64,000 nt of DNA from assembly GCA_017468935.1 (NCBI GenBank), contig JAFUHJ010000120.1, forward strand, positions 4,567 to 68,566, given 5' to 3'. Both the position numbers and the translations under genes were made by a program. This document shows, one piece after another, positions 2,896-64,000 of this stretch. Below the pieces are notes generated by a model. That model was given only the letters and a program-made list of their open reading frames with translations, was not told the origin of the DNA and ran no database searches. Numbering within the stretch: the first letter of the stretch is position 1; each line of letters begins with the position of its first letter. This stretch comes from Candidatus Methanomethylophilaceae archaeon. Its GTDB lineage: Archaea; Thermoplasmatota; Thermoplasmata; Methanomassiliicoccales; Methanomethylophilaceae.

Positions 2896-2899
2896 TACG

Positions 2900-3922: not shown

Positions 3923-3970
3923 AGGTCGAACCATAAAGTCTAAAAAACCACCCATATGTTATGACATCCG

Positions 3971-4990: not shown

Positions 4991-5010
4991 AATATATTTG
5001 GAAGGCCCAT

Positions 5011-7398: not shown

Positions 7399-7767
7399 TC
7401 AATATGTCGACGTACTGGCCTCTTTTATCTTCCAGGACTCCCCGATCCTGACGGCGACCATATCCATGCGGAGTCTCCATTCATGTCTCCCTCCGCCGTA
7501 TACGGCGGCGGTGACCCTGGAATAGCCGATGATCTTCGCACGATCCCCGCTGAGTTCGACATCGAATCTATCGGTGATGACCTTGTAATAGTTCAATGTC
7601 CCGTCCAGGACCGACGATACGAAACTCTCCGGGGTTTGGACCATCCCGGTCATGTGGATCATGGCCGCGTCTTCCGTCATGCATGACAGTATGGCCTCGC
7701 CATCCTTTTCCAGCATTCCGGTGTAGAGCTTCTCATAAAGGGCCTTCAACTGCACCTCTTCATCCAT
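7399..7767 (-). CDS. NTF2-like / SnoaL-like (DUF4440-type) small protein
   Basis: 122 aa with the pattern typical of SnoaL/DUF4440 cone-fold proteins (LYEKLYTGMLEKDGEAILSCMTEDAAMIHMTG...WRLRMDMVAVRIGESWKI). Confidence 0.6.
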   Translation of the reverse strand: MDEEVQLKALYEKLYTGMLEKDGEAILSCMTEDAAMIHMTGMVQTPESFVSSVLDGTLNYYKVITDRFDVELSGDRAKIIGYSRVTAAVYGGGRHEWRLRMDMVAVRIGESWKIKEASTSTY

Positions 7768-7771
7768 GCAT

Positions 7772-8326
7772 TCACTCCTTGCTTGGAGGGAATCTCTCCC
7801 CGTCCAGGGTCTTGATGGGTCTGGCCGGGGACCCTACGACCACCTCGTAGTCAGCAACATCGTGAGTGACCACTGAGGCCGCACCTACCACTGCGTATCT
7901 TCCTATGGTGACACCAGGCAATATGGTCGCATTGGCGCCGATCCAGGCACCCTCTTTGATGGTCACAGGCTTGCACAGCAGGAGATTCCTATTGTAGAGA
8001 TCGTGATTGTTGGACAGCACAGATACATTGGCGGCCACCATCACATTGTCCTCTATGGTGATCCCTCCGCGACACATGCCCAAGAAGTTGCCACCGATGT
8101 ACACGTTGTTGCCTATCCTCAGATTCTGGGAGGCTACCAGGTTGAATGGAGGGGTGAATCTCGTCCCTGTTCCGATACGGTCCTCCATGAGCTCCTTGAT
8201 GAGTGCGGAGTTCTCTTCCGTTAGAGGCATGGTGTTGTTGATCCTGTAGATCAACTGTGTCTCGCGGACGGCCTCTTTTATCCCATCTTCGATGACCTCG
8301 TTCATATCTACAACGAATTCTTCCAT
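7772..8326 (-). CDS. sugar O-acetyltransferase (maltose/galactoside acetyltransferase-like, left-handed beta-helix)
   Basis: Mac-type N-terminal region followed by hexapeptide repeats (IGNNVYIGGNF, ITIEDNVMVAANVSV, GAWIGANATILPGVTIGRYAVVGAASVV). Confidence 0.85.
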   Translation of the reverse strand: MEEFVVDMNEVIEDGIKEAVRETQLIYRINNTMPLTEENSALIKELMEDRIGTGTRFTPPFNLVASQNLRIGNNVYIGGNFLGMCRGGITIEDNVMVAANVSVLSNNHDLYNRNLLLCKPVTIKEGAWIGANATILPGVTIGRYAVVGAASVVTHDVADYEVVVGSPARPIKTLDGERFPPSKE

Positions 8327-8357
8327 AGTCTCACCTTCGGATGATCATCGTGTACGA

Positions 8358-8885
8358 TCACTCGACGCATCCCTTGGCCCACTTGGAGACCTTTGCAGAG
8401 GAACCTGCGGCGGAACTTCCTTCGATAGCCAGATCGGAATCGACTGATGCTCCTTTGCAAGCATTCCTGAGATCGCGTACAGAGGATCCGAGGCCGCTAC
8501 CCTCATGGGTCATTACGGGGAAAACCTTCTTTCCAGTCCAGTCGATCTTCTCGATCTGTGAGAACACGGCCATGGGATAAGTGCCCCACCAGCAAGGTCC
8601 GCAGATGAAGACGTTATCGTACCCGTCGATACTGTCCAGATACCTCTTCAATTCTGGCCTGGCCTTGTTCGACAGCTCGTCCTTGGCCTCTCTGGTGCAC
8701 TCCATATAATCCTTGGAGTACTCCCTTACGGTCTCTATCTCGAAGAGATCCCCTCCAACAGCCTCGGAGATATATTCCGCCACATACTCGGTGTTCCCTT
8801 TAGGGACGCTACGGATGTCTCCGCCGAAGTAGTTCTCTCCTTTGCGCGAGTAATAGATGATCAAATTCTTTGACATGCTTTTCAC
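8358..8885 (-). CDS. flavodoxin-family protein
   Basis: NLIIYYSRKGENY... and FICGPCWWGTYPMAV are typical of the flavodoxin_4-like family. An AT-rich promoter region lies upstream at 8886-9030. Confidence 0.8.
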   Translation of the reverse strand: MKSMSKNLIIYYSRKGENYFGGDIRSVPKGNTEYVAEYISEAVGGDLFEIETVREYSKDYMECTREAKDELSNKARPELKRYLDSIDGYDNVFICGPCWWGTYPMAVFSQIEKIDWTGKKVFPVMTHEGSGLGSSVRDLRNACKGASVDSDLAIEGSSAAGSSAKVSKWAKGCVE

Positions 8886-9059
8886 TGAAACTTGAAAAAC
8901 CAGATACTTATTAAGTATTTTTATATAAATATTCTATTATTGATTTAATTTTTTAATTGGATATAATAATCATTCTATTGATTGCTAAATACCAATTGGT
9001 ATAGGGCCCTTGATGGCTGATCGATGAATGGATGTAAAAATTAAGAATACAAGAAGGAT

Positions 9060-50397: not shown

Positions 50398-51147
50398 TCA
50401 CTTCAGTTCACCCCTTTCAATCCTCTCCAACAGTTCGGCGGCCTCAGAGGAACCGCGATTGGAGGCTTTTGTGAGCCACTTCTTGGCATTAGATAAACTA
50501 TGTGTCATTCCTTGTCCATTAATGTGCATTTTTCCAAGCTCACACATGGCGTCCTCCGAACCCATATTGGCAGCTTTGATCATGAACTTCGCAGCCTTGT
50601 CCGGATTCTTCGGTACACCTCTGCCTTCGAGATGGATCAGGCCCAGGCGGTAACCGGCCTTCTCGTATCCGGCTTTGAAGCATTTGGTGTACAGTTCGAT
50701 GGCCCTCGGGATGTCCTGGGGTATCCCGCGTCCCTCGTCGTTCATCACGGCCATCCTGTAGAGCGATACGATGTTGCCCTCCTCGGCGGCCCTTGAATAC
50801 CAATAATATGCTTTCTCCCAATCCTGAGGGATGCCTTCTACATCAGAATACATGAAACCAAGATTGAACATGGCCCTGGCGTCCCCGAGTTCGGCGGACT
50901 TGAGGTAAAGGTCCATGGCCTTCTCGAGATTGCAACTCATGCCGATTCCGTGCGCACGCATGTGGCCCAGATTGCACATGGCCTCTGCATTGCCTTGGTC
51001 GGCAGCGAGACCGAACCATCTGGCAGCCTCCCTCCTGTCCTGCACCACTCCGTCCCCTCTATAGAACAGGTAGCCCATGGCGACCTGCGCATCCGGGTCG
51101 CCGTCCTGGGCCTTCCTGAGGACTTCTTCGAATCCCAAAGGATTCAC
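50398..51147 (-). CDS. Sel1-like repeat (SLR) protein, no signal peptide
   Basis: About six SLR units (A..WY..AA.QG...A...LG.MY..G.G...D). GTG start overlaps the upstream gene's stop. Confidence 0.85.
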   Translation of the reverse strand: MNPLGFEEVLRKAQDGDPDAQVAMGYLFYRGDGVVQDRREAARWFGLAADQGNAEAMCNLGHMRAHGIGMSCNLEKAMDLYLKSAELGDARAMFNLGFMYSDVEGIPQDWEKAYYWYSRAAEEGNIVSLYRMAVMNDEGRGIPQDIPRAIELYTKCFKAGYEKAGYRLGLIHLEGRGVPKNPDKAAKFMIKAANMGSEDAMCELGKMHINGQGMTHSLSNAKKWLTKASNRGSSEAAELLERIERGELK

Positions 51148-52589
51148 CTCCTGGACTTCATGAGGTTCAACAATGCGGCAGCGTCGGGATCACCCTGCTT
51201 GGCCGCCATGTTGAGGTACTTCTTGGCGCGGATGTCGTTCTTCTTGACGTACTTGCCCTCGTAGTAGAGCTTTCCGAGATAGAACTGAGCTTCATAATAA
51301 CCGTCATCTGCGGATTCCTGGAGCAGTTTGAGACCCTCCTCCACATCCTGTTTCACGCCGGATCCCGTGACCTTGAACATTCCGAGGAACGCCTTCGCCG
51401 AAGGGTGTCCCTGCTCGGCGGCCTCGTTGTACCACATCGCGGCCTCCTCCAGGTTCCTCTCCGTTCCCCTTCCTTCGTAATAGAAGCATCCGAGACAGTA
51501 CTGGGAGTTGACCTCTCCCATCTCTGCAGCCTCCTTAAACCATTTCAGGGCCATCTCGTCGCTCTGTTCGTAATAGTAACCGTTGCCGTACATGCAGGCC
51601 AGCGCATACTGCGCATAACCATTGCACCTGTTCGCCGCCTCGGTGAACCAGTGTGCGGCCTTCTTGTAATCCTTGGGGATGACCTGACCTTCGAAGCACA
51701 TGTTGGCGAAGTCGACCATACCTTGCTGGTAACCATTCTCACAGCTCTTCTCCAGCCATTTCACCGCTATCGACGGATCCCTGCTCACTCCCTGACCGTA
51801 TGCATAGCACATCCCGATCTGGTATTGAGCCTCGGCATGACCCTGTTCGGCGGCCTTCTCGAAAAGACTGGCGGCCCTCTTGACATCTGTATGGAACTTC
51901 TTGGGCACCATGCACATGCATCCAAGCGCGAACTGGGCGTCCTTATTCCCGGCCTCGGCGGCACGCTCGTACCATTTGAAGGCCATCTTCTCATCCGGAT
52001 CGGTGTTGCACAGACCCTGGTCGTACATCTGTCCGATACGGTACATCGCTGTACCGTCCCCGCTGTCAGCCGCTCTTGATAGCCATTTTAGGGCAAGGTC
52101 TCTGTCCTTGGGTATTCCCTTCCCCATGAGGTACATGAAACCGATCTTCGCCTGTGCCTCTGCATCTCCATCGGATGCACAGGCCAGGTAGAATCTGACG
52201 GCCTCGGCATGATTCTTCTTGACCTTGTCGTTACCCTTATCGTACATCGCGAACAGCTCGGCCGATGCGACCGTATCCCTCTGTTCCCCGAGGAACCTCT
52301 TCGCGATGAGATCGTCCATGACCGCCTCGGTGTTCCTCTCGAACTCCTTCGCGACGATACCGGCTTCAGTGGATCCTGCATCCTCGGCCTCCGAGAATCC
52401 TCTCTTGGCCGCCTCCTTGTCCTGCTGGATTCCTCCCTCCCCCAGGTACTGGAAGAGCGAATAGAGGTACTTCGCATCCGAATTGGATGATGCCGCTCCT
52501 TTGGCCTCCTGTGCCGCTTTGGAGAGATCGAAATCCTGCGAATGCCGATCCATAAGAGTACGTGCTGAAACAAAAGGTTCCGAAACCAT
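51144..52589 (-). CDS. Sel1-like repeat (SLR) protein, no signal peptide
   Basis: About ten SLR units (e.g. AVRFYLACASDGDAEAQAKIGFMYLMGKGIPKD). ATG at 52589 chosen ~33 nt downstream of a TATA-like element; the ORF extends to a TTG at 52643. Confidence 0.82.
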   Translation of the reverse strand: MVSEPFVSARTLMDRHSQDFDLSKAAQEAKGAASSNSDAKYLYSLFQYLGEGGIQQDKEAAKRGFSEAEDAGSTEAGIVAKEFERNTEAVMDDLIAKRFLGEQRDTVASAELFAMYDKGNDKVKKNHAEAVRFYLACASDGDAEAQAKIGFMYLMGKGIPKDRDLALKWLSRAADSGDGTAMYRIGQMYDQGLCNTDPDEKMAFKWYERAAEAGNKDAQFALGCMCMVPKKFHTDVKRAASLFEKAAEQGHAEAQYQIGMCYAYGQGVSRDPSIAVKWLEKSCENGYQQGMVDFANMCFEGQVIPKDYKKAAHWFTEAANRCNGYAQYALACMYGNGYYYEQSDEMALKWFKEAAEMGEVNSQYCLGCFYYEGRGTERNLEEAAMWYNEAAEQGHPSAKAFLGMFKVTGSGVKQDVEEGLKLLQESADDGYYEAQFYLGKLYYEGKYVKKNDIRAKKYLNMAAKQGDPDAAALLNLMKSRR

Positions 52590-52734
52590 ATGACTGACCT
52601 TCTTCTCCCTATTCACGCGGAATATATGACGCTTTTTATCCAAGACCGACGATCGTCCGAAAGACCTGCGAAATGGTAAGATAACAGGGTTTCAATCAGA
52701 ACGCCTTTTATTCTCGGCACTATATCGGAGTAAT

Positions 52735-53400
52735 ATGTATTCCGACTCGGATATGATGGAGCCTCTCGAAAAGGCGAAATTCATCATACGTAACAATGTC
52801 GATTCGGGATACTTGGAAGCGTACAACACCTTTATGCGCGAATCCAAAAAGAACAGTGCGGAATCCAATTATTATCTCGGACTCATGTATGCACGCGGGC
52901 AGGGCGTACCGAAGAACTACGAGACCGCCCTGATATGGTTCGAGAAGGGTTTCGAGGGAGGGCATCCCGGATGCGCCTACTACCTTGGGATCATAAACCT
53001 CAAGGGGCTTAGCGTCGAACAGAATTCCAAGAAGGCCAAGGAATACTTCCTCATGGCCGCCGGCAGGGGAGATGTCCGTGCGGAGTACGAACTCGGTCTT
53101 CTGCACTTCAAGGATGTCGACATCCCAAGGGATCTCGAGGTATCGGCCAGCTGGATGAAGCTGGCTGCCGAGCACGGACACATAGAGGCGCAGTTCATCC
53201 TGGGCCAGTACTACAAATCCGGTGCCGGTGTGGACAGGGACATACCTCTTGCCGTCAGATGGTTGATGACCGCGGCACTCAACGGCCACTTGGGAGCTCA
53301 GATCCTCCTCGGTAACATGTACAGAAACGGAGACGGCGTCCCGCAGAACCTGGACGAGGCCGAACGCTGGTACGACATGGCCGACGCCAACAGGAACTGA
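52735..53400 (+). CDS. Sel1-like repeat (SLR) protein, no signal peptide
   Basis: About five SLR units (NYYLGLMYARGQGVPKNYETALIWFEKG...). Divergent from the previous two SLR genes. Confidence 0.85.
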   Translation: MYSDSDMMEPLEKAKFIIRNNVDSGYLEAYNTFMRESKKNSAESNYYLGLMYARGQGVPKNYETALIWFEKGFEGGHPGCAYYLGIINLKGLSVEQNSKKAKEYFLMAAGRGDVRAEYELGLLHFKDVDIPRDLEVSASWMKLAAEHGHIEAQFILGQYYKSGAGVDRDIPLAVRWLMTAALNGHLGAQILLGNMYRNGDGVPQNLDEAERWYDMADANRN

Positions 53401-53445: not shown

Positions 53446-55134
53446 TCACTTGAGTCCGACGATCTTTCCGTCGTCCATGAGGTCCATCCTCATCGCTGCG
53501 GGGACCTTGGGCAGACCGGGCATGAGCGTCAGTGTACCGCATTCTGGGACGATGAATCCGGCTCCGGCGGAGATGTTGATCTCCCTGACATGGAGCTTCC
53601 ATCCCTTGGGCACACCCTTCATAGTCGAGACATCGGACAATGATGCCTGGGTCTTGGCGATACAGATGGGGAGGTTTCCGAATCCGTCCTTCTCGTACCC
53701 CTCGATCCTCTTGTCAACCAAGGGGTCGTAGGTGACTCCGTCCGCTCCGTAGATCTTCTTCGCAATGATCTCGATCTTGGACTTGATGGGTTGGTCGAGG
53801 TCGTAGAGGAACTTGAAGTCAGTCTTGGTGCTGTCGATGGTGTCGATAACGGTCTGAGCGAGCTGCTTCGCTCCCTCTCCACCCTTGATGAATCCGTCGT
53901 TGAATGCCACGGGGATTCCCATCTTCTTGCAGTGGTCGCGGATGTAGTCCATCTGCTCCTGTGTATCCTGTGCGAAGTGATTGATACCGACTACCACGGG
54001 GACGCCGTATGAGCTCATGTTCTCGATGTGCTTGTCGAGGTTGCACATTCCCTTCTCGAGGGCCTCGATCGTGAGTGTGGACTCGTCGTCGAGGACTCCT
54101 CCTCCGTGAGTCATCAGGGCCTTGACGGTAGCGACGATCACGACACAGGAGGGCCTGAGACCGGATTCCCTGCAGACGATGTCCATGAACTTCTCTCCTC
54201 CCAGATCGGAAGCGAAACCGGATTCCGTCACGACATAGTCGGCCAGCTTCAAGGCCGTCCTCGTGGCGATTATCGAGTTGTTCCCGTGAGCGATGTTAGC
54301 GAACGGGAATCCGTGGATGAACACGGGCTGTCCCTCGAGGGTCTGCACGAGGTTGGGGTTGATGGCGTCCTTGAGGATGACCATCATTGCACCGACGCAT
54401 TTGAGGTCCTTGACGGTGACGGGTTTGTTGTCGTATGTGTATGCGACAACGATCCTCTCGAGCCTTGCCCTGAGGTCGGCACGGTCCTTGGCCAGACAGA
54501 GGATGGCCGCGATCTCGGATGCCGATGTGATGATGAATCCAGACTCATGTGGGACTCCGCCCTTGATCTTGTCCTTTCCAAGACCTGTGACGATGTTCCT
54601 GAGTTCACGGACGTTCATGTCGACGGTCTTTCTCCACACGACACGTGCGGGATCGATTTGCAGAGGGTTGTCCCTGACGAGCTCGTTGTCCACGATGGCG
54701 GACAGGAGGTTGTGAGCCGCTGCGACTGCGTGGATGTCTCCTGTGAAGTGGAGGTCTATATCCCACATGGGGTACACCTGGGCATATCCTCCGCCGGTCG
54801 CTCCTCCCTTGATTCCGAAGGTGGGTCCAAGCGAAGGCTCCCTGAGTGCTCCGACGACGTTCTTTCCGAGTGCACCGAGTCCCTGCATCAGACCGATGGA
54901 TGTGACCGTCTTACCCTCCCCTGCGGGAGTGGGGGTGATGGCAGTGACCATGACGAGCTTTCCGTCCTTCTTGTCCTTGAGTTTCTCCAGGTTCTCGATG
55001 GGGACCTTTGCGATGTACTTTCCGTAAGGGCTGATGTCGTCCTCTGTGAGACCGATCTTAGCTGCAATTTCCTTGATTGGTTTGGGATTCGCCTCATAGG
55101 CGATCTCGATGTCAGATAACATGATGGGTGCCAT
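53446..55134 (-). CDS. fhs: formate--tetrahydrofolate ligase
   Basis: SDIEIA, TPTPAGEGKTVTSIGL, PSLGPTFGIKGGATGGGY and FANIAHG are FTHFS signatures. An alternative Met at 55122 fits the TATA-like element at ~55146-55154. Confidence 0.95.
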   Translation of the reverse strand: MAPIMLSDIEIAYEANPKPIKEIAAKIGLTEDDISPYGKYIAKVPIENLEKLKDKKDGKLVMVTAITPTPAGEGKTVTSIGLMQGLGALGKNVVGALREPSLGPTFGIKGGATGGGYAQVYPMWDIDLHFTGDIHAVAAAHNLLSAIVDNELVRDNPLQIDPARVVWRKTVDMNVRELRNIVTGLGKDKIKGGVPHESGFIITSASEIAAILCLAKDRADLRARLERIVVAYTYDNKPVTVKDLKCVGAMMVILKDAINPNLVQTLEGQPVFIHGFPFANIAHGNNSIIATRTALKLADYVVTESGFASDLGGEKFMDIVCRESGLRPSCVVIVATVKALMTHGGGVLDDESTLTIEALEKGMCNLDKHIENMSSYGVPVVVGINHFAQDTQEQMDYIRDHCKKMGIPVAFNDGFIKGGEGAKQLAQTVIDTIDSTKTDFKFLYDLDQPIKSKIEIIAKKIYGADGVTYDPLVDKRIEGYEKDGFGNLPICIAKTQASLSDVSTMKGVPKGWKLHVREINISAGAGFIVPECGTLTLMPGLPKVPAAMRMDLMDDGKIVGLK

Positions 55135-55190
55135 TCATTATGCATAAATAATAGTAGTTGCGAGCGCCACCTGAAATAGTTCTAGATTTG

Positions 55191-55231
55191 TTAGGCTACC
55201 CTAAATTTATATATTATTTAGTTGTTCCTAA
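55191..55231 (+). promoter_or_regulatory. operator-TATA-operator module 1: TTAGGCTACCCTAA - ATTTATATATTAT - TTAGTTGTTCCTAA
   Basis: Two 14-nt TTAG(G/T)-N4-CCTAA inverted-repeat boxes (55191-55204, 55218-55231) flank a TATA element. The half-sites equal those of the DtxR box. No ORF lies downstream on the plus strand. Confidence 0.6.
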
Positions 55232-55271
55232 ATTTGTCAAGTTCCGACCCAAAAGTCGGTTGACGCAGAGA

Positions 55272-55293
55272 CCGGGGATCGGGGGGTCTCCGG
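55272..55293. repeat. 22-nt G-rich repeat copy A (CCGGGGATCGGGGGGTCTCCGG)
   Basis: Matches copy B at 20 of 22 positions. The two copies fall in different reading frames of the minus-strand 68-aa ORF. Confidence 0.8.
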
Positions 55294-55404
55294 ATCTGCA
55301 AACCGTTTAGTGTAGCAAGAAGTCGGAGGACCGTCAATAGCCTCATGGATGTAACCGATAATCATTCGGTTCTGCGATGACTGATACATCATTAGTAACC
55401 TCAG

Positions 55405-55426
55405 CCGGGGGTCGGGGGGCCTCCGG
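55405..55426. repeat. 22-nt G-rich repeat copy B (CCGGGGGTCGGGGGGCCTCCGG)
   Basis: Direct repeat of copy A, 133 nt downstream. Confidence 0.8.
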
Positions 55427-55497
55427 CAATATTCTTTCTCCAATCGATTGTACCAGTACAGCAGGGGTCATCGGAAATTTAACACATGGAAAATTTT

Positions 55498-55541
55498 TTA
55501 GTTTCTCCTAAACTATATATATCGTTTTTAGGTATTCCTAA
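55498..55541 (+). promoter_or_regulatory. operator-TATA-operator module 2 (feoA promoter): TTAGTTTCTCCTAA - ACTATATATATCGTTT - TTAGGTATTCCTAA
   Basis: Same 14-nt box twice (55498-55511, 55528-55541) around a TATA. Box 4 ends 2 nt before the feoA ATG, which implies a leaderless feoA mRNA and promoter occlusion by a repressor. Confidence 0.65.
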
Positions 55542-55543
55542 TC

Positions 55544-55831
55544 ATGAGTCAAATAGATCCTGTGCCCGTTTCAATGCAAGCGGACAATGGGGCAAGCAAG
55601 ATGCCGACCATTCCAAGTTCGTTCCTCAGAGTGGGTCAGATAGCAACAATCGACAAAATCTCTGGATCGGAAGAGGTCAGGAAATTCCTTGCAGGACTCG
55701 GATTTGTGCGTGGCACGCCGATCAAAGCAGTCAGCAACAACAACACTGGACTAATTTTTGAAGTCAAAGGTTCCAGGGTTGCGGTTGACTTGAAAATGGC
55801 TACCAAGATCCACGTTGCCAGCGAGAGCTGA
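55544..55831 (+). CDS. feoA: FeoA-domain protein
   Basis: LRVGQIATIDKISGSEEVRKFLAGLGFVRGTPIKAV...GSRVAVDLKMATKIHV is the FeoA SH3-like pattern. Confidence 0.8.
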   Translation: MSQIDPVPVSMQADNGASKMPTIPSSFLRVGQIATIDKISGSEEVRKFLAGLGFVRGTPIKAVSNNNTGLIFEVKGSRVAVDLKMATKIHVASES

Positions 55832-55835
55832 TAGT

Positions 55836-56057
55836 ATGACTACTTTGAAGGAAACTTCCATTGGCTCGACCGTCAAGGTCAAGAAGGTCAACGGAGAAGG
55901 AAACCTGAAGAGACACATCATGGACATGGGCATCACCAAAGGTGTCGAAATCTATGTCCGTAAGGTCGCCCCTCTCGGAGATCCCGTGGAGATCACCGTG
56001 CGCGGCTATGAGCTGAGTCTCAGAAAGGAATATGCGGAGATGATCGAGGTCGAATGA
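55836..56057 (+). CDS. feoA: FeoA-domain protein
   Basis: GSTVKVKKVNGEGNLKRHIMDMGITKGVEIYVRKVAPLGDPVEITVRGYELSLRKEYAEMIEV. ATG at 55836 chosen. Confidence 0.85.
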   Translation: MTTLKETSIGSTVKVKKVNGEGNLKRHIMDMGITKGVEIYVRKVAPLGDPVEITVRGYELSLRKEYAEMIEVE

Positions 56058-56107
56058 CCCAGTGATCCCCGGGCCGCCGTTTATGGCACGGCGGCTTGAA
56101 GGAGTGT

Positions 56108-58276
56108 ATGAACATGAGTTTCACAATAGCATTGGCCGGAAACCCGAACTGCGGTAAGACCACCTTGTTCAACGCATTGACAGGTGCTTCCCAGCGTGTC
56201 GGAAACTGGCCCGGAGTTACTATTGATAAGAAGGTCGGAAAGATCAAAGGAACTGACTCCGAACTCGTCGACCTTCCCGGTATCTACTCCCTGTCACCCT
56301 ACTCCCCTGAGGAGATCGTGTCAAGGAACTACATAGTGAATGATAACCCTGACGGTATCATTAACATTGTTGACGCTACGAACCTCGAGAGGAACCTCTT
56401 CCTCACGCTTCAGATCATCGATATGGGTAAACCCGTTGTCATCGCCCTCAACATGATGGATGAGGTCGAGAAACAGGGCGACAAGATCGATGCAGAGAAA
56501 CTGTCGGCAAGACTCGGTGTCCCGGTCATCCCCATCTCCGCAAAGGAGAAGAGGAACATCGACAAACTGGTCAGTGCCATTACAGACGCAGCCGAGAAGA
56601 AGACCGAGCCCAAGTACGTCAGGTACAACGATTCCATCGAGGCAGCCGTCGACGCCGCGGAGAAGGCGCTCGAGGGCAAGATTCCCGGAAGCCCCAGATT
56701 CTATGCATTCAAGCTCGTCGAGGGCGATGATGCGGTCATGCAGGCCGTTCCCGGTGCCAGGGAATCCATCTCGGAAGCAATCAACAATCTGGAGAAGGAG
56801 TTCGACGACACCGCCGACTCCGTCATCACAGACAGCAGGTACGAGACCATCACTGACATCGTCTCTTCAGCCTACGAGAGGGCACCCAGGGACGAGAGGG
56901 GAACACTCTCCGACCGTGTCGACAGGATCGTCACCAACAGGATCCTCGGACTGCCTATCTTCATCCTGATCATCGGATTCGTCTATTTCGTCGCCATGTA
57001 CGACGGAGACCTCGGTACATCCCCTGGAGCATGGGCCACCGGATGGCTTAACGACTTCATCAGCGAAACTGTCATCCCTGCAGCACAGGAATGGTGCGAG
57101 AGTGCCGGTGTCAGCGAAGCCCTAACAGGATTGCTATGTGACGGAATTCTTTCAGGAGTCGGTGCAGTCATCGGATTCCTGCCTCAGATGATCGTTCTGT
57201 TCATCTGTCTGGTCATCCTCGAAGAAGTAGGATACATGGCCCGTGTCGCATTCGTCATGGACCGTATCTTCAGATACTTCAACCTCTCGGGAAAATCATT
57301 CATTCCCCTTATCGTCAGTACCGGATGCGGTGTGCCCGGAGTCATGGCCACCAGGACCATCGAAAGCGAATCGGACCGCCGTATCACTGCCATGACATGC
57401 ACATTCATGCCCTGCGGTGCGAAGCTGCCTGTCATCTCAGCCATCGCCGGAGCCCTAGCAGGAAGCGTCTGGGTCGCCGTCTTCGCATATGTGATGGGTA
57501 TCGTCCTGGTCATCATCTCCGGTATCATCATCAAGAAATTCCACGCGGTATCCGGAGCTCCCGCACCTTTCATCATGGAGCTTCCGCCCTACCACATGCC
57601 CGGATTCGTGACCTGTGCCAAGACCGTCTTCGACAGATCATGGGCGTTCGTGAAGAAAGCAGGTACCATCATCCTGCTCGCTATGATCCTCGTATGGTTC
57701 CTCAAGTCATTCAGCTGGTCCTTCACACTCCTCTCAGAGGAAGAGATGGGCGATTCTATCCTTGCCAGCATCGGAGGCGTACTGAGCTATCTGTTCATGC
57801 CTCTCGGATGGGGCGACAGTTGGGAGCTCCCCGCAGCATCCATTACCGGTCTCATCGCCAAAGAAGACCTCATCGGAACCCTTGAGCTCCTGATCGCAGC
57901 ACCCTTCGACATGGATGTATCCGAAGCACTCGATCTGCTCGGAACCAAGATGGCCGGAGCCGCTGGTCATGCAATGATCCTCTCGTTCTTCACCTTCAAC
58001 ATGTTCTGCGCACCCTGTTTCGCGGCTGTAGGAGCGATTCACAGGGAACTTGGAACCTGGAAGGCGACCGGATTCGCATTCCTGTACCAGTGTCTGCTCG
58101 CATACTTCGTTGCGGTCATCGTATTCGTGGTCTCGGCAGCCGTTATGGGCGCAATGTCGGATGTCCCGTGGTATTCGATAATGTTCGCAATCATCGACGC
58201 CGTCATCCTGGTCTACTTCCTGGTAGTCAAGGATCCGTTCAAGCCCTTCCGCAAGAACACCGAGGTGGCCGAATGA
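56108..58276 (+). CDS. feoB: ferrous iron transporter FeoB
   Basis: G domain (IALAGNPNCGKTTLFNALTG, DLPGIYSL, ALNMMD) followed by a polytopic membrane domain with gate motifs. Candidate ATG at 56108 or 56114 after the SD-like AAGGAG. Confidence 0.93.
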   Translation: MNMSFTIALAGNPNCGKTTLFNALTGASQRVGNWPGVTIDKKVGKIKGTDSELVDLPGIYSLSPYSPEEIVSRNYIVNDNPDGIINIVDATNLERNLFLTLQIIDMGKPVVIALNMMDEVEKQGDKIDAEKLSARLGVPVIPISAKEKRNIDKLVSAITDAAEKKTEPKYVRYNDSIEAAVDAAEKALEGKIPGSPRFYAFKLVEGDDAVMQAVPGARESISEAINNLEKEFDDTADSVITDSRYETITDIVSSAYERAPRDERGTLSDRVDRIVTNRILGLPIFILIIGFVYFVAMYDGDLGTSPGAWATGWLNDFISETVIPAAQEWCESAGVSEALTGLLCDGILSGVGAVIGFLPQMIVLFICLVILEEVGYMARVAFVMDRIFRYFNLSGKSFIPLIVSTGCGVPGVMATRTIESESDRRITAMTCTFMPCGAKLPVISAIAGALAGSVWVAVFAYVMGIVLVIISGIIIKKFHAVSGAPAPFIMELPPYHMPGFVTCAKTVFDRSWAFVKKAGTIILLAMILVWFLKSFSWSFTLLSEEEMGDSILASIGGVLSYLFMPLGWGDSWELPAASITGLIAKEDLIGTLELLIAAPFDMDVSEALDLLGTKMAGAAGHAMILSFFTFNMFCAPCFAAVGAIHRELGTWKATGFAFLYQCLLAYFVAVIVFVVSAAVMGAMSDVPWYSIMFAIIDAVILVYFLVVKDPFKPFRKNTEVAE

Positions 58277-58473
58277 GTACCGGCGACCTCGTTGTTGGAG
58301 CGATCATCGCGTTGCTTGCGATCGGAGCGATCTATGTCCTTTGGAACAACCACCGCAAGGGCAAGAGCAGCTGCGGATGCAACTGTTCCGGATGCTCTAA
58401 GACGGGGTCGTGCAGCTCATGCAACGTCACGATCGATGAGAACGAGACTTGCGATTGCTGCAAGAAGGACTGA
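58273..58473 (+). CDS. FeoB-associated Cys-rich small membrane protein
   Basis: One TM helix (LVVGAIIALLAIGAIYVLW) followed by SSCGCNCSGCSKTGSCSSCN..CDCC. ATGA overlap with the feoB stop. Confidence 0.75.
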   Translation: MSTGDLVVGAIIALLAIGAIYVLWNNHRKGKSSCGCNCSGCSKTGSCSSCNVTIDENETCDCCKKD

Positions 58474-58482
58474 AACTCTAAA

Positions 58483-58527
58483 GGGGGTTACACCCCCTGT
58501 TAAAACCTTCAGGCGGTCATCCGCCTG
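58483..58527 (+). terminator. two hairpins (GGGGGT-TAC-ACCCCC and CAGGCGG-TCAT-CCGCCTG) after the feo operon
   Basis: Consecutive GC stems, 10 and 37 nt after the stop of the Cys-rich gene. Confidence 0.55.
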
Positions 58528-58587
58528 CCTTTATCCGACTATTATTAACATATCTGGATTTTATATGGGCAACTCTTTCTTCATTCC

Positions 58588-58725
58588 ATGAAATACAGAT
58601 GCCCTATGTGCGGATACATCTACGACGAAGAGAAGACTGGCGTTAAATTCGCGGACCTTCCAGATGACTGGGAGTGCCCTGTCTGCGGAGAGCCCAAGTC
58701 CGAATTCGTCCCCATGGACGACTGA
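58588..58725 (+). CDS. rubredoxin (45 aa; below the ORF-track length cut-off)
   Basis: Hand translation gives [45 protein letters not shown], with CPxCG twice and the DDW.CP.CG signature. Its stop abuts the convergent SLR gene's stop. Confidence 0.88.
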
Positions 58726-59655
58726 TCACAGACCGTCTATCTTTATGAATTGGGTGTTCTGTTTCCTGCGGAGATCGTCAAGGAACTGCTTGGCTAGCTG
58801 ATTCCCTGCGTTGGCGGAACGCCCGAACCTTCTCATAGCCTCCTCAACATTCTGCGCAGCCCCAAGGCCCTCGAACAGCATCCTTGCGGTCATGAACAAG
58901 GCATCGCCATCCTCGGTGCTGGATACCCTATCGTATAACTCGAATGCCTTGTTGAAATCCCTATTCACACCCCTTCCCTCGTAATACATGGTGCCGAGGT
59001 TGAACATCGCGGGTGCAAAGCCTTGCTCCACCGCTTTCTCATACCATTGCAGTGCGACCTTGTCCCCGCCGGGGATCGCCCCTGACTCGGCCATCCTGGC
59101 CATCCTGAACTGTGCCTCCGGGATCCCGGCCTCTGCGGACTTCCTGAACCATTCCGCTGCCTTCTTCTCATCCTTGGTCATCCCGACACCTTCAGATGCC
59201 AGATAGCCCATCATGAACATGGACTGTGCGTTACCTGAATCGGCTGATAGCTTGTAGTAATGGAGCGCCTTGTCGGCATCTGCTGCTACGCCGTACCCGT
59301 ACAGGTATATCGCTGCGATCTCGGGATATGCCAATTCCACCCCGTTCTCTGCCGCCTTCTCGAACCAGTATCTGCATTGTTCCTGATCCTCCGGATACCC
59401 GTAGGAACCTGTGAAGATGCTTCCGAGCCTGAACATGGCCGGAGAGTTACCGGCCTCTGCGGACCTCTTGTAGAGCTCCACGGCACCCTCGACATCCTTC
59501 GGTGTCCCCATGCCGTTTATCTTCATCTCCGCAAGGCCGAACCAGCCTTCCGGCGATCCCAATTCACCGGCGCGGGTGAAGAGAGCGACTGCCCTCTCGG
59601 GATTCCTCTCGTAGCAATTGACGGCCTGCATGCAGTACTCCGACGGGTCTTCCAT
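58726..59655 (-). CDS. Sel1-like repeat (SLR) protein, no signal peptide
   Basis: About seven SLR units (AVELYKRSAEAGNSPAMFRLGSIF..., AAEWFRKSAEAGIPEAQFRMARM...). ATG at 59655 chosen; a TTG lies at 59688. Confidence 0.82.
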   Translation of the reverse strand: MEDPSEYCMQAVNCYERNPERAVALFTRAGELGSPEGWFGLAEMKINGMGTPKDVEGAVELYKRSAEAGNSPAMFRLGSIFTGSYGYPEDQEQCRYWFEKAAENGVELAYPEIAAIYLYGYGVAADADKALHYYKLSADSGNAQSMFMMGYLASEGVGMTKDEKKAAEWFRKSAEAGIPEAQFRMARMAESGAIPGGDKVALQWYEKAVEQGFAPAMFNLGTMYYEGRGVNRDFNKAFELYDRVSSTEDGDALFMTARMLFEGLGAAQNVEEAMRRFGRSANAGNQLAKQFLDDLRRKQNTQFIKIDGL

Positions 59656-59722
59656 GACCCCTGGATAGACGTGGTCAGATAAATGCAATCGGTATATCTA
59701 CGATGAATGCCATCCATCGGTC

Positions 59723-59920
59723 ATGATAAAAGGGCCTTTGGTCTATGCCGCGATGATCCTCGCCGCACTTCTGATGATCATCTCGGCGGTCGTGATCCTG
59801 AACAGGGACCTGTTCGTAGAGAACTCGGACCTGATCATGATCGTTTCGGGAGTCATCGCTCTCGGAGTCATAATCGTCCTCGTGATGATGCTGATTCGCA
59901 CGTGGAATCGCAACCCTTGA
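59723..59920 (+). CDS. small two-TM membrane protein
   Basis: 65 aa. LVYAAMILAALLMIISAVVIL and IMIVSGVIALGVIIVLVMMLI. No family recognised. Confidence 0.5.
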   Translation: MIKGPLVYAAMILAALLMIISAVVILNRDLFVENSDLIMIVSGVIALGVIIVLVMMLIRTWNRNP

Positions 59921-60033
59921 AACCCTTTATTTCCGCCTTTTCCAGAGTTTACGAAAATCGTTAAACGATAGTACACGTTTACAAAGTAAAGCCGTCACCT
60001 TTTATACTCTACGAATTTCGCAGAACCGAATCC

Positions 60034-60066
60034 TTTATATTTTATAGGGAAAAAACGATAGCGTTT
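60034..60066 (+). promoter_or_regulatory. Hsp70-vWA promoter: TATA-like TTTATATTTTATAGG followed by palindrome AAACG-ATAG-CGTTT
   Basis: The TATA element lies ~30-40 nt upstream of ATG 60078, and a 14-nt palindrome (60053-60066) sits between the TATA and the ATG. Confidence 0.45.
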
Positions 60067-60077
60067 CCGATGGGATT

Positions 60078-62108
60078 ATGAAGGTAGGTATAGACCTCGG
60101 AACAACATACTCTGCAGTAGCAAGATATGATAAGGCGTCGAACAAACCGGTCATGCTGAACAACTCGTTCGGTAAGGAGATCACCCCCTCGGTCATCTGT
60201 TTCCTTGATGACGGGGACATCCTGGTCGGAGAGGACGCCAAGGATATGCAGTCGAACGGAACTGGTGTCAACGCTGCGGCTTTCAAGCGCAACATGGGTG
60301 ACGGATCCATCGTTGTCAGCTTCAACGGCAAGGACTATACGGCGGAAGACCTCTCAGCCATGCTCCTCAAGCACCTGATCGAGGATGCTGAGAAAGCAGC
60401 GGGCGAGAAGATCGATGAAGCGGTCATCACGGTCCCCGCATACTTCGAGGACGCTCAGAGAACCGCTACGAAGCGCGCGGGAGAGGCTTGCGGGATCAAG
60501 GTCCCCAAGATCATCAACGAGCCCACGGCGGCCGCCATCTCATACGGATACAAGCACTCGGCCGACAAGACCCTCCTGGTCTATGACCTGGGAGGAGGAA
60601 CGTTCGATGTCACGATTGTTAGGGTCACAAAAGGAAGCATAGAGGTCATCGGTACGAACGGAAACCACATCCTCGGAGGAAAGGACTGGGACGCGGCCAT
60701 CGTCAAGTTCGTATGCGACAGGTTCGTCAACGAGTTCGATGTGGACCCCAGGGATGACCTTCCCACCAAGAACGAGCTCATCGTGGCGGCAGAGGGATAC
60801 AAGAAGACACTGTCCATCGCCGAGAGCGTTACGATCCCGATAAACTACGAGGGATGCAGCGAGAAGTACACCCTCACCAGGGATGAATTCGAATCAATGA
60901 CCGAGCACCTGATGAATGCGACCAAAGAGGTCTGCGAGGATCTGATGGATTCGCTCGGAATGCAGTGGACAGACATCGACGAGATCCTCCTGTGCGGTGG
61001 ATCCACAAGGATGCCGGGCGTCGCGAAGTTCCTGAAGAGCTTCACCGGACGCGAGGTCGTCACACACAGCGATACCGACCTGGCCGTCGCGAAGGGAGCA
61101 GCCATCACAGCCGAGCTCTACAGCAGCAACGCCACCGGAATGAGGGCCGCCATGCAGGTGTCCGATGTCACTGCGCACAGTCTCGGAGCACTCTCAGTCA
61201 GTCAGGACGGGAAGAAGTACGTCAACGAGATCATGATCAAGAGGAACTCCAAGGTCCCCAGCACATGCAAGAAGCAGTTCTCCATCAAACCGGGCAACAT
61301 GACCGACAAGATCGAGGTCTACACCCTGCAGGGAGAATCGAGGATCCCGCTGGACTGTAACGTCCTTGCAAAAGTGGTCATCACAGGCTTCTACAACGAC
61401 GGAAAAGGAGTCATCATCGATATAGAATACAATTACGACGAGAACGGAATCGTCAACATCAGGGCATCGCAGGGCGAGGAGCCCCTCGACGTCAAGTCCG
61501 AGCCCGTTCCCGACGACATAAGGTGGATGGGCGGAGACCCGCACGACAAGCCTTCAGACGTGAAGATCGCCAAGAACATAGCGATCTGCGTCGACCTCTC
61601 CAGGAGTATGGAGGGAGAACCCATCGAGGCCGCAAAGGATTCGATCCGCAGCTTCGTACGCACCCTGTCCGACGAACAGACCAAGTTCTCGCTCATCGGA
61701 TTCGGGGACAAGGTCAAGGTCGTCCAGGAACTCACCAATGACACCGACGTCATCATCAACTCCATCGAGGAGCTCAAAGTCAAGATGCTCGGAAGGGGAA
61801 CCGACGCCAGCCCGCTGGACACAGCGAGGATGGTCATCGGAGGCCAGCCCGGAGTGGGCATCATCGTCGTACTCACGGACGGAATCTGGGGTAAGAGGGA
61901 CAATGCAGTGGACCAGGCTCTCGGCTGCAGGACCGATGGAATAACCATAATCGCCATCGGACTCGGAGAGGCGGACACATCGTTCCTCAGGCAGATCGCC
62001 ACCGTCGATGACGGTGCCCTGTTCACGACCATCGACAAGCTCGGTGACACCTTCGGAACCATCGCAACCGCGATCTCTGCAGGAAACATGGGTCTCGCTG
62101 TCCGCTGA
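60078..62108 (+). CDS. non-canonical Hsp70 (actin-fold ATPase + SBD-beta) fused to a C-terminal von Willebrand factor A domain
   Basis: Hsp70 motifs: VGIDLGTTYSAVA, INEPTAAAISYG, VYDLGGGTFDVTIV, LLCGGSTRMPGV. An SBD-beta-like region follows (AHSLGALSV...), with no helical lid or EEVD. The last ~165 aa form a vWA domain with an intact MIDAS (DLSRS, GTD, LTDG). Confidence 0.88.
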   Translation: MKVGIDLGTTYSAVARYDKASNKPVMLNNSFGKEITPSVICFLDDGDILVGEDAKDMQSNGTGVNAAAFKRNMGDGSIVVSFNGKDYTAEDLSAMLLKHLIEDAEKAAGEKIDEAVITVPAYFEDAQRTATKRAGEACGIKVPKIINEPTAAAISYGYKHSADKTLLVYDLGGGTFDVTIVRVTKGSIEVIGTNGNHILGGKDWDAAIVKFVCDRFVNEFDVDPRDDLPTKNELIVAAEGYKKTLSIAESVTIPINYEGCSEKYTLTRDEFESMTEHLMNATKEVCEDLMDSLGMQWTDIDEILLCGGSTRMPGVAKFLKSFTGREVVTHSDTDLAVAKGAAITAELYSSNATGMRAAMQVSDVTAHSLGALSVSQDGKKYVNEIMIKRNSKVPSTCKKQFSIKPGNMTDKIEVYTLQGESRIPLDCNVLAKVVITGFYNDGKGVIIDIEYNYDENGIVNIRASQGEEPLDVKSEPVPDDIRWMGGDPHDKPSDVKIAKNIAICVDLSRSMEGEPIEAAKDSIRSFVRTLSDEQTKFSLIGFGDKVKVVQELTNDTDVIINSIEELKVKMLGRGTDASPLDTARMVIGGQPGVGIIVVLTDGIWGKRDNAVDQALGCRTDGITIIAIGLGEADTSFLRQIATVDDGALFTTIDKLGDTFGTIATAISAGNMGLAVR

Positions 62109-62118
62109 AGGAGTTAAC

Positions 62119-64000
62119 ATGGCTAGTAAGACAGACAACTACTGTCAACTCCTGGGTCTCGACCCTTACAACGAAAGCAAGTACTCCCTAGACAAGATCA
62201 ACGAGAAGATAGACAAGATGGAAGTCAAATGGGCCAACGAGTTCAGGAACAAGCAGAACGACACTGGCCAGCGCTTCAAGTACCACAAATTGGTGGATGA
62301 AGTGCCGGAGATGAAACGCTGCATGGCCGACCCGATGCTCAGGAGAAAGGTCTTCTCGGAAGGAAAGAAGAGCCTCGAGGGCAAGGTCCAGAGACTCAAG
62401 CTCGACTGCGTCATACTCACGGACGGCAGATACATCATCCTGCCGGGATTCCTGGACAACTTCGTCAAGAGGCTGCACTGGGACGGAGTGGACAAGAAGC
62501 AGATCCTGAAGATCGCGGGCATCAGCGAAGGCACCGTCCCCAAGATCGTCAGCGAGAAGGTCGTCAACGCCTTCACCAACCTGACTACAGTGGACGCCTA
62601 CACTCCTGTCGAAGTACTCAATGTCCTCATCACGAATCCGGACCTGGAGATCAGGTGCGACCCCCTGACGGAGGCCAGCTCACTCGCCCAGGTCAGGAAC
62701 GCGTTCGAACTGTGCGAGAAGAGGGTCAACAGCGTCAGGCAGGACATCCTGCCCGACCAGGATTCCTACATATCGGTGCTCAGGAGCCTCAAGCTCATCA
62801 TCGATTCGGACAAGGAGATGAAGGACCTCATCAACTACGGAAGATGCTACAAGGCCCTCGTCCCCGTCATGGAGATGATCGACAAGGAATACACAGGACA
62901 GCAGCTCTCCAGGAACTACATCGACGACCTGATGAACATCTATGTCAGGGGACTCGACCAGGACATGTGCATCAACATCCTCCAGGCCTACTGCCACAAG
63001 AAGAGGATCGCTGCCAACTTCTCTAAGCTGGACAGCACCATGATCAGATGCCCCGAGTGTAACAACATGGTCCCCGGCGGGAAGAACACGATGTTCTGCC
63101 CCTACTGCGGTAAGAACTTCAAGATAGTCTGCCCGCAGTGTAACACGGCACAGCAGTCCAGCAACGGCATCTGTATCAAGTGCGGTTTCAACTTCAAGGA
63201 CGGAGAGACCAAGGCCCAGAACCTCGCCTTAGGATTCCGCATGGACATCCAGAAGGGTAACCTGACCAAGGCGGAGAAGGACCTGTCGATGCTGAAGACC
63301 ACCTACGCGACCTTTGCCGGCATCGCCGGCATGGAGGTCCAACTCCGCAAGGAACAGGGTACGTTGAACACCCTGAAGAACATGGTCAACGACAACCATA
63401 GGAACAACAAGTACTACGCCGCGAAGAGCGCCGGAGACACCATCGTCAGCAGATATCCGAGCGAGATGGTCAACTATCCGGATGTCAAGCAGAGGTACGA
63501 TGAATCCCTGCAGCGCGTCCAGCATGCGGATGTGTTCGTCCATCAGGCTGAGGCCACGGAGGACAGGAACCAGATGCTCTCGCTGTATGTGAGTGCCGCA
63601 GAGGAATGTCCCGACCATCCGTCGGCAAAGGGTGTGCTGAAGCAGTATCCTCCAGCAGGACCTGCTGATCCCGTTGCACAGATCAAGGACGGACGCCTCG
63701 TCATCAAGTACGAGCCCCCCAGCGACAGCAGTGGAGTCACATACGCCATCTACAGGGAGAAGAACTCCCTTCCAAACGTTACCGAGGAGACACGTCCCCT
63801 GACGGAGATACCCGGTACGGTATACACCGATAAAACCCTCGAGCCCGGTATAGAATACTACTATTCCGTATACTCTAAGCGCTGGGGCATCCTATCCAGG
63901 GAAGCGGCCCACTTCGGACCGGTCATATTCCTTGCGGAGGTCGAGAGGGTCACCATCGACCAGATCGACGGAGGACTTCGCCTCATGTACGAGAAGCCCC
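62119..64000 (+). CDS. large multidomain protein, 3' end outside window: degenerate J-like N-terminus + helical region + double zinc ribbon + FN3-like domain
   Basis: Hand translation is open from ATG 62119 to the window end (627 codons, no stop), which is why it is absent from the ORF track. N-terminal DNYCQLLGLDPYNESKYSLDKINEKIDKMEVKW resembles J-domain helices I-II without HPD. Zinc ribbons: CPECNN..CPYCG..CPQCN..CIKCG. A later segment GVTYAIYRE...YTDKTLEPGIEYYYSVYS is FN3-like. Confidence 0.8.
   Translation, partial: MASKTDNYCQLLGLDPYNESKYSLDKINEKIDKMEVKWANEFRNKQNDTGQRFKYHKLVDEVPEMKRCMADPMLRRKVFSEGKKSLEGKVQRLKLDCVILTDGRYIILPGFLDNFVKRLHWDGVDKKQILKIAGISEGTVPKIVSEKVVNAFTNLTTVDAYTPVEVLNVLITNPDLEIRCDPLTEASSLAQVRNAFELCEKRVNSVRQDILPDQDSYISVLRSLKLIIDSDKEMKDLINYGRCYKALVPVMEMIDKEYTGQQLSRNYIDDLMNIYVRGLDQDMCINILQAYCHKKRIAANFSKLDSTMIRCPECNNMVPGGKNTMFCPYCGKNFKIVCPQCNTAQQSSNGICIKCGFNFKDGETKAQNLALGFRMDIQKGNLTKAEKDLSMLKTTYATFAGIAGMEVQLRKEQGTLNTLKNMVNDNHRNNKYYAAKSAGDTIVSRYPSEMVNYPDVKQRYDESLQRVQHADVFVHQAEATEDRNQMLSLYVSAAEECPDHPSAKGVLKQYPPAGPADPVAQIKDGRLVIKYEPPSDSSGVTYAIYREKNSLPNVTEETRPLTEIPGTVYTDKTLEPGIEYYYSVYSKRWGILSREAAHFGPVIFLAEVERVTIDQIDGGLRLMYEKP

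Follow-up and report, generated by a model that had tools for sequence, protein, structure and literature searches.

In the 64,000-nucleotide stretch analysed here (Candidatus Methanomethylophilaceae archaeon, assembly GCA_017468935.1, contig JAFUHJ010000120.1, forward strand positions 4,567 to 68,566; called the window below), the gene at 60078-62108 encodes a non-housekeeping Hsp70 in which the helical lid is swapped for a von Willebrand A (vWA) domain with a competent metal-ion-dependent adhesion site (MIDAS). We call this protein Hsp70-vWA. We consider it fairly probable that Hsp70-vWA is the defining subunit of a self-contained Hsp70 machine separate from the housekeeping one, and that this machine would carry out MIDAS-tethered and GTPase-gated remodelling. 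The gene is built as follows:

60078-62108, plus strand: Hsp70-vWA gene, a 676-residue open reading frame for a lid-less Hsp70 with vWA/MIDAS (Pfam and AlphaFold2)
60078-61127, plus strand: nucleotide-binding domain, residues 1-350, with intact ATPase motifs
61164-61505, plus strand: substrate-binding beta-sandwich, residues 363-476, opening with the signature D-V-T-x-H-S-L-G (Pfam and AlphaFold2)
61572-62081, plus strand: vWA domain, residues 499-668, at the position of the helical lid (Pfam, AlphaFold2 and PDB profile)
61593-61607, plus strand: MIDAS D506-x-S508-x-S510; the remaining MIDAS residues are T575 (61800-61802) and D601 (61878-61880)

Each motif from which the first-pass annotation of this stretch had read an Hsp70 ATPase with its lid replaced by a vWA domain is located in the open reading frame. 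The four Hsp70 signatures lie at residues 4 (GIDLGTTYS), 147 (NEPTAAA), 170 (DLGGGTFD) and 307 (GGSTRMP), and the MIDAS is complete with DLSRS at 506, GTD at 574 and TDG at 600. Pfam HSP70 (PF00012) matches with E = 1e-110, and this match ends at profile position 487 of 599, short of the lid. The Pfam models VWA, VWA_2 and VWA_3 are each above their cut-offs; VWA (PF00092) covers residues 500-651 with E = 2.7e-18 and 67 bits against a cut-off of 23.8. The AlphaFold2 model (34 orthologues; mean predicted local distance difference test score, pLDDT, of 82.9) contains the nucleotide-binding domain, then the strands of the beta-sandwich at 361-475 and an alternating beta/alpha domain at 499-668, with pLDDT of 81-94 over residues 501-630. 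The helical lid (SBD-alpha) is absent from this model, and a lone helix of four residues (482-485) precedes the vWA domain. The closest solved structures are ATP-state DnaK, BiP and Ssb, and the family profile of the C-terminal region retrieves 201 solved vWA domains, among them BatB, anthrax toxin receptor 2, TRAP, complement C2 and integrin I-domains. Both the replacement of the lid and the vWA fold of the C-terminal region, as first proposed, are therefore borne out. The EEVD tail that had also been listed as missing is indeed absent. This is uninformative, since prokaryotic DnaK has no EEVD tail either.

Some sources annotate the protein as 'molecular chaperone DnaK', and its Hsp70 motifs and its identity of about 34% to E. 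coli DnaK could be taken for a variant housekeeping DnaK that serves general protein folding. We regard this as very improbable. The protein scores far below the NCBIfam equivalog cut-offs (DnaK 364 against 648, TIGR02350 353 against 823, HscA 322 against 709), and for this reason it is not the housekeeping DnaK, as the first-pass annotation had also held. The lid is absent, and the Methanoplasma termitum copy is named DnaK2, which implies a separate DnaK. Furthermore, the interdomain linker (residues 350-362, window 61125-61163) lacks the hydrophobic VLLL of DnaK. Throughout the family, alternating hydrophobic residues of the form [LIM]-x-[IVL]-x-D followed by D-V-T-x-H-S-L-G replace VLLLDVTPLSLG. 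The linker is also the least confident stretch of the AlphaFold2 model (pLDDT < 50 at residues 353-358), and allosteric coupling in Hsp70-vWA may differ from that of DnaK.

The fusion is not restricted to this genome. Among the 120 clusters listed in Methanomassiliicoccales, Hsp70-vWA orthologues are 63-94% identical and all carry HSP70 and VWA Pfam domains; the nearest named relative is that of ISO4-G1 with 89% identity. With residues 381-676 as query, an exhaustive search of 1.84 billion cluster representatives gives 2332 matches, 92 of them with E < 1e-30. The substrate-binding domain and the vWA domain are collinear (at about 380-690 of proteins with 680-750 residues) in well over 100 representatives of 50% identity clusters. 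A scan of GTDB species genomes yields 155 confirmed Hsp70-vWA loci from about ten phyla of Bacteria and Archaea. The best 80 of these 155 loci comprise Methanomassiliicoccales, Methanosarcina and Methanoregula on the archaeal side and, on the bacterial side, Bacillota, Bacteroidota, Planctomycetota, Acidobacteriota, Actinomycetota, Chloroflexota, Cyanobacteria and Gammaproteobacteria. This distribution points to an ancient and widespread fusion. It also leaves a vanishing probability that the fused frame is an assembly, chimeric-join or frameshift artefact of two genes, for which the unusual architecture is the sole argument. The identical collinear fusion occurs on hundreds of independent contigs and in the complete genomes CP013703 and CP010070, and its presence in more than 100 clusters and 155 species loci excludes the artefact that the first-pass annotation had wanted checked.

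Conservation within the family is concentrated on the functional residues. The ATPase motifs are essentially invariant across 88 diverse Hsp70-vWA proteins. The DxSxS element of the MIDAS with the Met that follows it (DxSxS-M) and D601-G602 of TDG are invariant in all 89 aligned sequences, 87 of which also carry the family-specific His367 of D-V-T-x-H-S-L-G, a position at which DnaK has Leu. The alignments argue for strong purifying selection on both the ATPase and the MIDAS.

Hsp70-vWA lies in an operon, as indicated by the gap of 10 nt to the following gene, of which the window contains these parts:

62119-64000, plus strand: 998-codon gene, first 627 codons inside the window, starting 10 nt past the Hsp70-vWA stop with its own GGAG ribosome-binding site
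62131-62364, plus strand: divergent J-like domain, residues 5-82, lacking HPD (profile comparisons)
63049-63186, plus strand: double zinc ribbon, residues 311-356, with eight invariant or near-invariant Cys (Pfam DZR)
63685-63918, plus strand: first fibronectin type III (FnIII)-like beta module, approximate limits, with the sequence pattern VTYxIYR ... PG.EYYYSVY

The remainder of the operon can be read from a contig (L005 in our numbering of loci) whose DNA is 98.3% identical to window positions 57431-64000. It encodes the full-length 998-residue form of the downstream protein (P0121, 100% identity to the window fragment) and continues with a zinc-ribbon DO-GTPase2 of 417 residues (7686-8939; PF19993 with 31.3 bits against a cut-off of 27; three CxxC motifs), a GrpE-like protein of 279 residues (PF01025 with 29.8 bits against a cut-off of 25.8) and a second Hsp70, here called Hsp70#2. 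The GrpE-like protein and Hsp70#2 are present on L001, L004 and L005, and the complete genomes of ISO4-G1 and M. termitum contain the same five genes as an operon. The first-pass annotation had stated that neither dnaJ nor grpE lies next to the gene. This has to be revised: the next gene starts with a J-like domain, and the GrpE-like protein and Hsp70#2 follow just past the end of the window. They were overlooked because the window stops at 64000 and because the J-like domain is too divergent to be spotted by eye.

Hsp70#2 of ISO4-G1 and M. termitum has 523-527 residues with intact ATPase motifs and no lid, and archaeal Hsp70#2 matches the HSP70 profile up to position 510 of 599. A match of the iterated 'vWA' profile to Hsp70#2 proteins of about 550 residues was rejected as profile drift, as Pfam detects no vWA there. 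The C-termini of Hsp70#2 (L018-L085, for example L043 7148-8803) are conserved as ...S.EE.E.AK.[KR]S..[IV].V.-COOH, with an acidic patch ahead of a short hydrophobic strand. Speculatively, this tail is a candidate ligand for the MIDAS or the substrate-binding groove of the partner.

The 998-residue protein consists of the J-like domain, a helical region, the double zinc ribbon, a variable helical region and FnIII-like repeats. The assignment of its N-terminus as a J-like domain is moderately supported by profile and model comparisons. In hhalign, the N-terminus matches a J-domain alignment with 80% probability and E = 1.4e-5. Of the ten best PDB matches to a profile of 38 N-termini from archaea and bacteria, eight are J-domains (best DNAJB8, E = 0.003), and these eight are collinear over the whole J-like domain. 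In addition, the helix pattern in an AlphaFold2 model of the 320-residue N-terminus (pLDDT 90.4) fits a J-domain. The HPD motif is absent in all 61 homologues of the domain; its position reads W-A-N-E...KQND in the archaeal sequence and H-P-T/Q-K in some bacterial ones. Pfam DZR matches the zinc ribbon with E = 8e-6, slightly under its cut-off, together with weak zinc-ribbon matches in the PDB. The FnIII-like modules are suggested by the sequence pattern, by one weak Fn3-like PDB match to the second repeat (E = 0.82) and by the DnaJ-fused FNIII-repeat protein that Kaur et al. describe (PMC7159879).

We iterated profiles of the archaeal operon proteins over six-frame open reading frames of fetched loci and viewed synteny across 80 loci. 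Among 48 well-flanked loci, Hsp70#2 is found in 46, the GrpE-like protein in 45, the big protein in 40-43, at least one GTPase in 38 and GAP1 in 32. Judged by these co-occurrence counts, the tightest unit is a four-gene chaperone core of Hsp70-vWA, Hsp70#2, the GrpE-like protein and the J-like/FnIII protein of about 1000 residues. One or two zinc-ribbon DO-GTPase2 proteins, of which one is membrane-anchored, generally accompany this core, as does GAP1-N2 outside Methanomassiliicoccales. The gene neighbourhood, one of the checks that the first-pass annotation had proposed, is conserved. In bacteria, Methanosarcina and Methanoregula, the usual gene order is [GTPase], GrpE-like, Hsp70#2, Hsp70-vWA, big protein, GTPase, a gene for about 880 residues and GTPase. 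The core of Methanomassiliicoccales is a circular permutation of this order. In Metabacillus litoralis, the gene for about 880 residues is located between two DO-GTPase2 genes and encodes GAP1-N2 (102 bits) together with GAP1-M (40 bits).

Several loci show variations of the cassette. Three to four tandem Hsp70 paralogs lie 5' of the big protein in L025, L040, L046, L053 and L070 (Victivallales, Planctomycetota, Prevotellamassilia). In M. litoralis (L022), a protein of 1296 residues (285-4175; DUF11, bacterial TSP3 repeats, vWA, lipase-like) is encoded 2 kb upstream of the cassette and could be a further vWA component or have nothing to do with the system. Microcystis sp. BLCC-F210 has a variant form (L079 3121-5991, 6783-8771 and 8867-11035; likewise L083), and the gene for the scaffold of about 1000 residues was not found in these two cyanobacterial loci. 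At its C-terminus, the DO-GTPase-like protein of Microcystis carries an ARC6-like IMS domain, which otherwise occurs in a J-domain protein of cell and plastid division.

Within Methanomassiliicoccales, which are unicellular gut methanogens, the position of the operon beside formate-tetrahydrofolate ligase (FTHFS) is conserved. Between ISO4-G1 and M. termitum, the identities are 63% for Hsp70-vWA, 68% for Hsp70#2 and 60% for the GTPase, compared to 67% for FTHFS; the big protein (46%) and the GrpE-like protein (43%) are less conserved. No hypervariable region is found in the comparison of the two operons. From the fixed position beside FTHFS and the FTHFS-like identities of the orthologues, the operon looks vertically inherited and stably maintained, with housekeeping-like divergence. 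A second GTPase is encoded at the other end of the window:

3971-4990, plus strand: Pirin gene, adjoining the DO-GTPase2 paralog
4900-6594, plus strand: DO-GTPase2 paralog with about four N-terminal transmembrane helices and two zinc ribbons (P-loop GGTNTGKT; start perhaps near 5011)

This paralog matches the hidden Markov model (HMM) of the family with E = 3.5e-47 and PF19993 with 27.9 bits against a cut-off of 27, and contains two CxxC motifs. It is probably an unlinked member of the Hsp70-vWA system. The pair of Pirin and transmembrane GTPase is 53 kb away from the operon in the window and lies directly downstream and convergent in genomes of the M. termitum type, so that the adjacency of the two genes survives rearrangement.

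For the favoured MIDAS-tethered machine we propose the following mechanism. Like the vWA protein that MoxR AAA+ ATPases employ as a separate partner, the vWA domain at the lid position would act as a built-in cis adaptor. Its MIDAS metal would capture an acidic residue of a fixed partner, which could be the scaffold protein with FnIII modules, one of the GTPases or Hsp70#2 with its acidic-then-hydrophobic tail. The beta-sandwich would hold a peptide segment, and the Hsp70 ATPase cycle would pull on or release this segment. The GrpE-like factor could reset the ATPase cycle, and the J-like domain lacking HPD could position the Hsp70. As outcome, one specific membrane-proximal complex would be assembled or remodelled under control of the GTPases, as opposed to general client folding. 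For the biological output we hold two options tentatively and to the same degree: invader or stress sensing as put forward by Kaur et al., or a domesticated cellular assembly function in Methanomassiliicoccales.

Capture of clients or sensing by the vWA domain, as suggested in the first-pass annotation, is one possible reading of the fusion; the conserved partners suggest a tether to a fixed component of a complex. A free-standing specialised chaperone, whose vWA domain captures diverse clients or senses independently of the neighbouring genes, would be compatible with the intact beta-sandwich, the complete MIDAS and the ligand-binding nature of the solved vWA relatives. We consider it improbable because Hsp70-vWA is nearly never alone in the 48 well-flanked loci and because its spacing to the downstream gene points to an operon. 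More weight has to be given to anti-virus or anti-invader immunity. Kaur, Burroughs, Iyer and Aravind (eLife 2020; PMC7159879) predicted by comparative genomics an HSP70-GrpE theme of GAP1-N2-type DO-GTPase systems, in which the FnIII protein senses an invader, DO-GTPases switch on and Hsp70s, as effectors, form nucleoside triphosphate-dependent multimers that lead to dormancy or death. The link to prokaryotic conflict systems drawn in the first-pass annotation stands in this sense, as the class is so linked by prediction. The bacterial and Methanosarcina cassettes fit the published definition (GAP1-N2, DO-GTPase2, HSP70, GrpE), Hsp70 paralogs are expanded at some loci to up to four in tandem, and the big protein and the GrpE-like protein diverge faster than the ATPases. 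Against immunity, a comparison of ten system proteins with 5027 PADLOC models (PADLOC-DB v2) yields nothing beyond coiled-coil noise at E > 7e-5, and neither 72,556 plasmids nor 50,697 phage records contain the fusion. The operon of Methanomassiliicoccales occupies a fixed chromosomal site with housekeeping-like divergence and no hypervariable region, a toxic effector domain is absent, and the unicellular hosts run counter to the claimed link with multicellularity. Taken together, we regard immunity as possible and rather unlikely.

Several observations weigh against the MIDAS-tethered, GTPase-gated machine that we favour. Tethering through the MIDAS is itself inferred, and at the position of the mid-MIDAS Thr, 55 of the 89 aligned sequences have Asn and 23 have Thr. 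Foldseek with the 320-residue N-terminal model (pLDDT 90) finds no significant neighbour of the big protein and no J-domain, and no fold match for residues 90-300 either; the Pfam DnaJ model matches none of the 38 individual J-like segments. A J-like domain lacking HPD may leave ATP hydrolysis unstimulated. It is also ambiguous which Hsp70 would receive this domain: the Arg or Lys equivalent to DnaK R167 is present in 46 of 81 Hsp70-vWA proteins versus 3 of 78 Hsp70#2 proteins, whereas in Microcystis it is Hsp70#2 that bears an N-terminal extension of about 118 residues matching the J-like profile. In about 20% of the well-flanked loci, a GTPase is not found within 10 kb, and GTPase coupling is therefore frequent and not obligatory. 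Kaur et al. treat GAP1 as a core constant component (PMC7159879). A GAP1 HMM built from 47 loci with GAP1 also matches the Methanosarcina and Methanoregula cassettes and finds no GAP1 in the 17 Methanomassiliicoccales loci and the 64-kb window, to which this search was confined. The open reading frame at 1096-2895 was considered as a divergent GAP1 and rejected, as it has no Pfam match, overlaps DinB-like and Dus genes and is probably spurious. Finally, there is no experimental literature on any member of the system, and the prediction of Kaur et al. is the sole relevant DO-GTPase study.

The surroundings of the operon in the window contain two further features:

58726-59688, minus strand: Sel1 (TPR-like) repeat protein, divergently transcribed (Pfam Sel1, E = 2e-52)
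60034-60046, plus strand: TATA-like element TTTATATTTTATA, 32-44 nt 5' of the ATG of Hsp70-vWA, read from the sequence

With low confidence, the TATA-like element TTTATATTTTATA is a possible archaeal promoter. Further Sel1 repeat genes at 51144-52643 (minus strand) and 52735-53400 (plus strand) bring the number of Sel1 genes within 9 kb upstream to three. In most (about 10 of 11) GTDB loci of Methanomassiliicoccales, with L010 and L017 as exceptions, the roughly 3 kb preceding the operon include a Sel1 gene. Whether Sel1 is a member of the system is uncertain, as the family is repetitive and orthology is not established; Kaur et al. mention TPR fusions in the HSP70-GrpE theme (PMC7159879). Between Sel1 and Hsp70-vWA, an open reading frame of 65 residues with two predicted transmembrane helices (59723-59920, plus strand) is a called gene in L002 and L005; tblastn detects no homologue in more distant loci. 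Further upstream (53446-58473) lie FTHFS (minus strand), two FeoA-like open reading frames, FeoB (56096-58276) and a FeoB-associated Cys-rich membrane protein (58273-58473). The synteny of these upstream metabolism and transport genes is conserved with ISO4-G1.

Hsp70s are usually viewed as generalist folding machines that obtain specificity from J-proteins. Here, in a widespread Hsp70 family, a vWA domain takes the place of the lid, and the chaperone is accompanied by an exchange factor of its own, another Hsp70, a J-like scaffold lacking HPD and dedicated GTPases. If the MIDAS tether model is true, it would show an Hsp70 hard-wired to a single target, and Methanosarcina or Bacillota hosts would offer a tractable experimental entry to DO-GTPase systems. 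As a bolder extension, about which we are doubtful, the four-gene core could form a class of Hsp70 machine that is new and autonomous. It would then be no accessory of conflict systems but the Hsp70 equivalent of MoxR-vWA or Midasin, and in Methanomassiliicoccales a vertically inherited, GAP1-independent apparatus for one membrane-proximal complex.

Compared to canonical DnaK-DnaJ-GrpE, the system shares the Hsp70 ATPase with its beta-sandwich, an exchange factor of the GrpE family and a partner protein with a putative J-type domain. It differs by the vWA/MIDAS in place of the lid, by two Hsp70 paralogs and by scores below the DnaK equivalog cut-offs. In contrast to DnaJ, the J-like domain is carried by a scaffold of 1000 residues and is found without HPD and without the zinc-finger or C-terminal domains of DnaJ. 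A functional analogy is offered by MoxR AAA+ systems (RavA-ViaA, CoxD-CoxE and the MIDAS domain of Midasin), which likewise combine an ATP-driven remodeller with a MIDAS vWA adaptor that holds the target. The motors are not homologous: the motor here is an Hsp70 with actin-like fold, and its vWA domain is supplied in cis. Kaur et al. also regard GTPase plus HSP70 systems as analogues of MoxR-vWA (PMC7159879). The CnuD- and McrB-fused Hsp70-like units of CoCoNuT systems (Bell et al., eLife 2024; PMC11090510) also contain non-canonical Hsp70 nucleotide- and substrate-binding domains and occur in predicted conflict operons with vWA (TerY-like) genes. There, the Hsp70 is fused to McrB, McrC or HEAT repeats, its ATPase motifs are degenerate and the vWA is a separate TerY-P gene. 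Given this different architecture, with intact ATPase motifs and a fused vWA in Hsp70-vWA, we reject membership in CoCoNuT/TerY-P. Specialised Hsp70 paralogs that are not heat-shock proteins and serve regulatory tasks of their own are also known from Myxococcus xanthus (StkA and SglK). StkA has 540 residues with no vWA mentioned and is accompanied by SCP2-like StkB and small StkC; SglK resembles DnaK and functionally replaces it in an E. coli dnaK mutant. Both loci were rejected as relatives, as they have no vWA, their neighbours differ and the cassette is not shared.

The system most similar to the operon is the HSP70-GrpE theme itself, which comprises HSP70 and GrpE, in some cases another HSP70, and an FNIII-repeat protein whose fusion partner is DnaJ (PMC7159879). 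Our cassettes are assigned to this theme because the orthologous bacterial, Methanosarcina and Methanoregula loci also encode GAP1-N2, and there together with GAP1-M. No experimentally characterised family claims the fusion, and to this extent the first-pass annotation was correct in calling it unassignable; in terms of predicted systems, the cassette does have a place. Shared components are the zinc-ribbon DO-GTPase2 (one paralog with N-terminal transmembrane helices), HSP70, GrpE and the second HSP70. The FNIII-repeat protein with DnaJ-type N-terminus reported by Kaur et al. 2020 (PMC7159879) can be likened to the 998-residue protein, whose J-like and FnIII-like parts rest on profiles and patterns. 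In Methanomassiliicoccales, by contrast, GAP1 is undetected in the 17 loci and the window, the gene order is permuted and, in this genome, the second GTPase is unlinked. Kaur et al. describe a second HSP70 without peptide-binding domain, whereas the HSP70 match of archaeal Hsp70#2 extends well beyond the ATPase, and their text makes no mention of a vWA fused to HSP70. They report few archaeal occurrences, near absence from cyanobacteria and a link with multicellularity (PMC7159879); the Hsp70-vWA module is found throughout the order Methanomassiliicoccales, and Microcystis and Prochloron have it as well. Their systems are described as mobile, with variable effectors and a link to multicellular hosts, whereas the locus described here appears vertically inherited in unicellular ones. 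We conclude that the sequence comparisons identify the locus as a GAP1-less, order-permuted, vertically inherited archaeal variant of the HSP70-GrpE theme. The computationally defined theme is already known, and this GAP1-less, permuted version is what is new. Its order-wide, vertical form in gut methanogens challenges the view of mobile immune modules tied to multicellularity.

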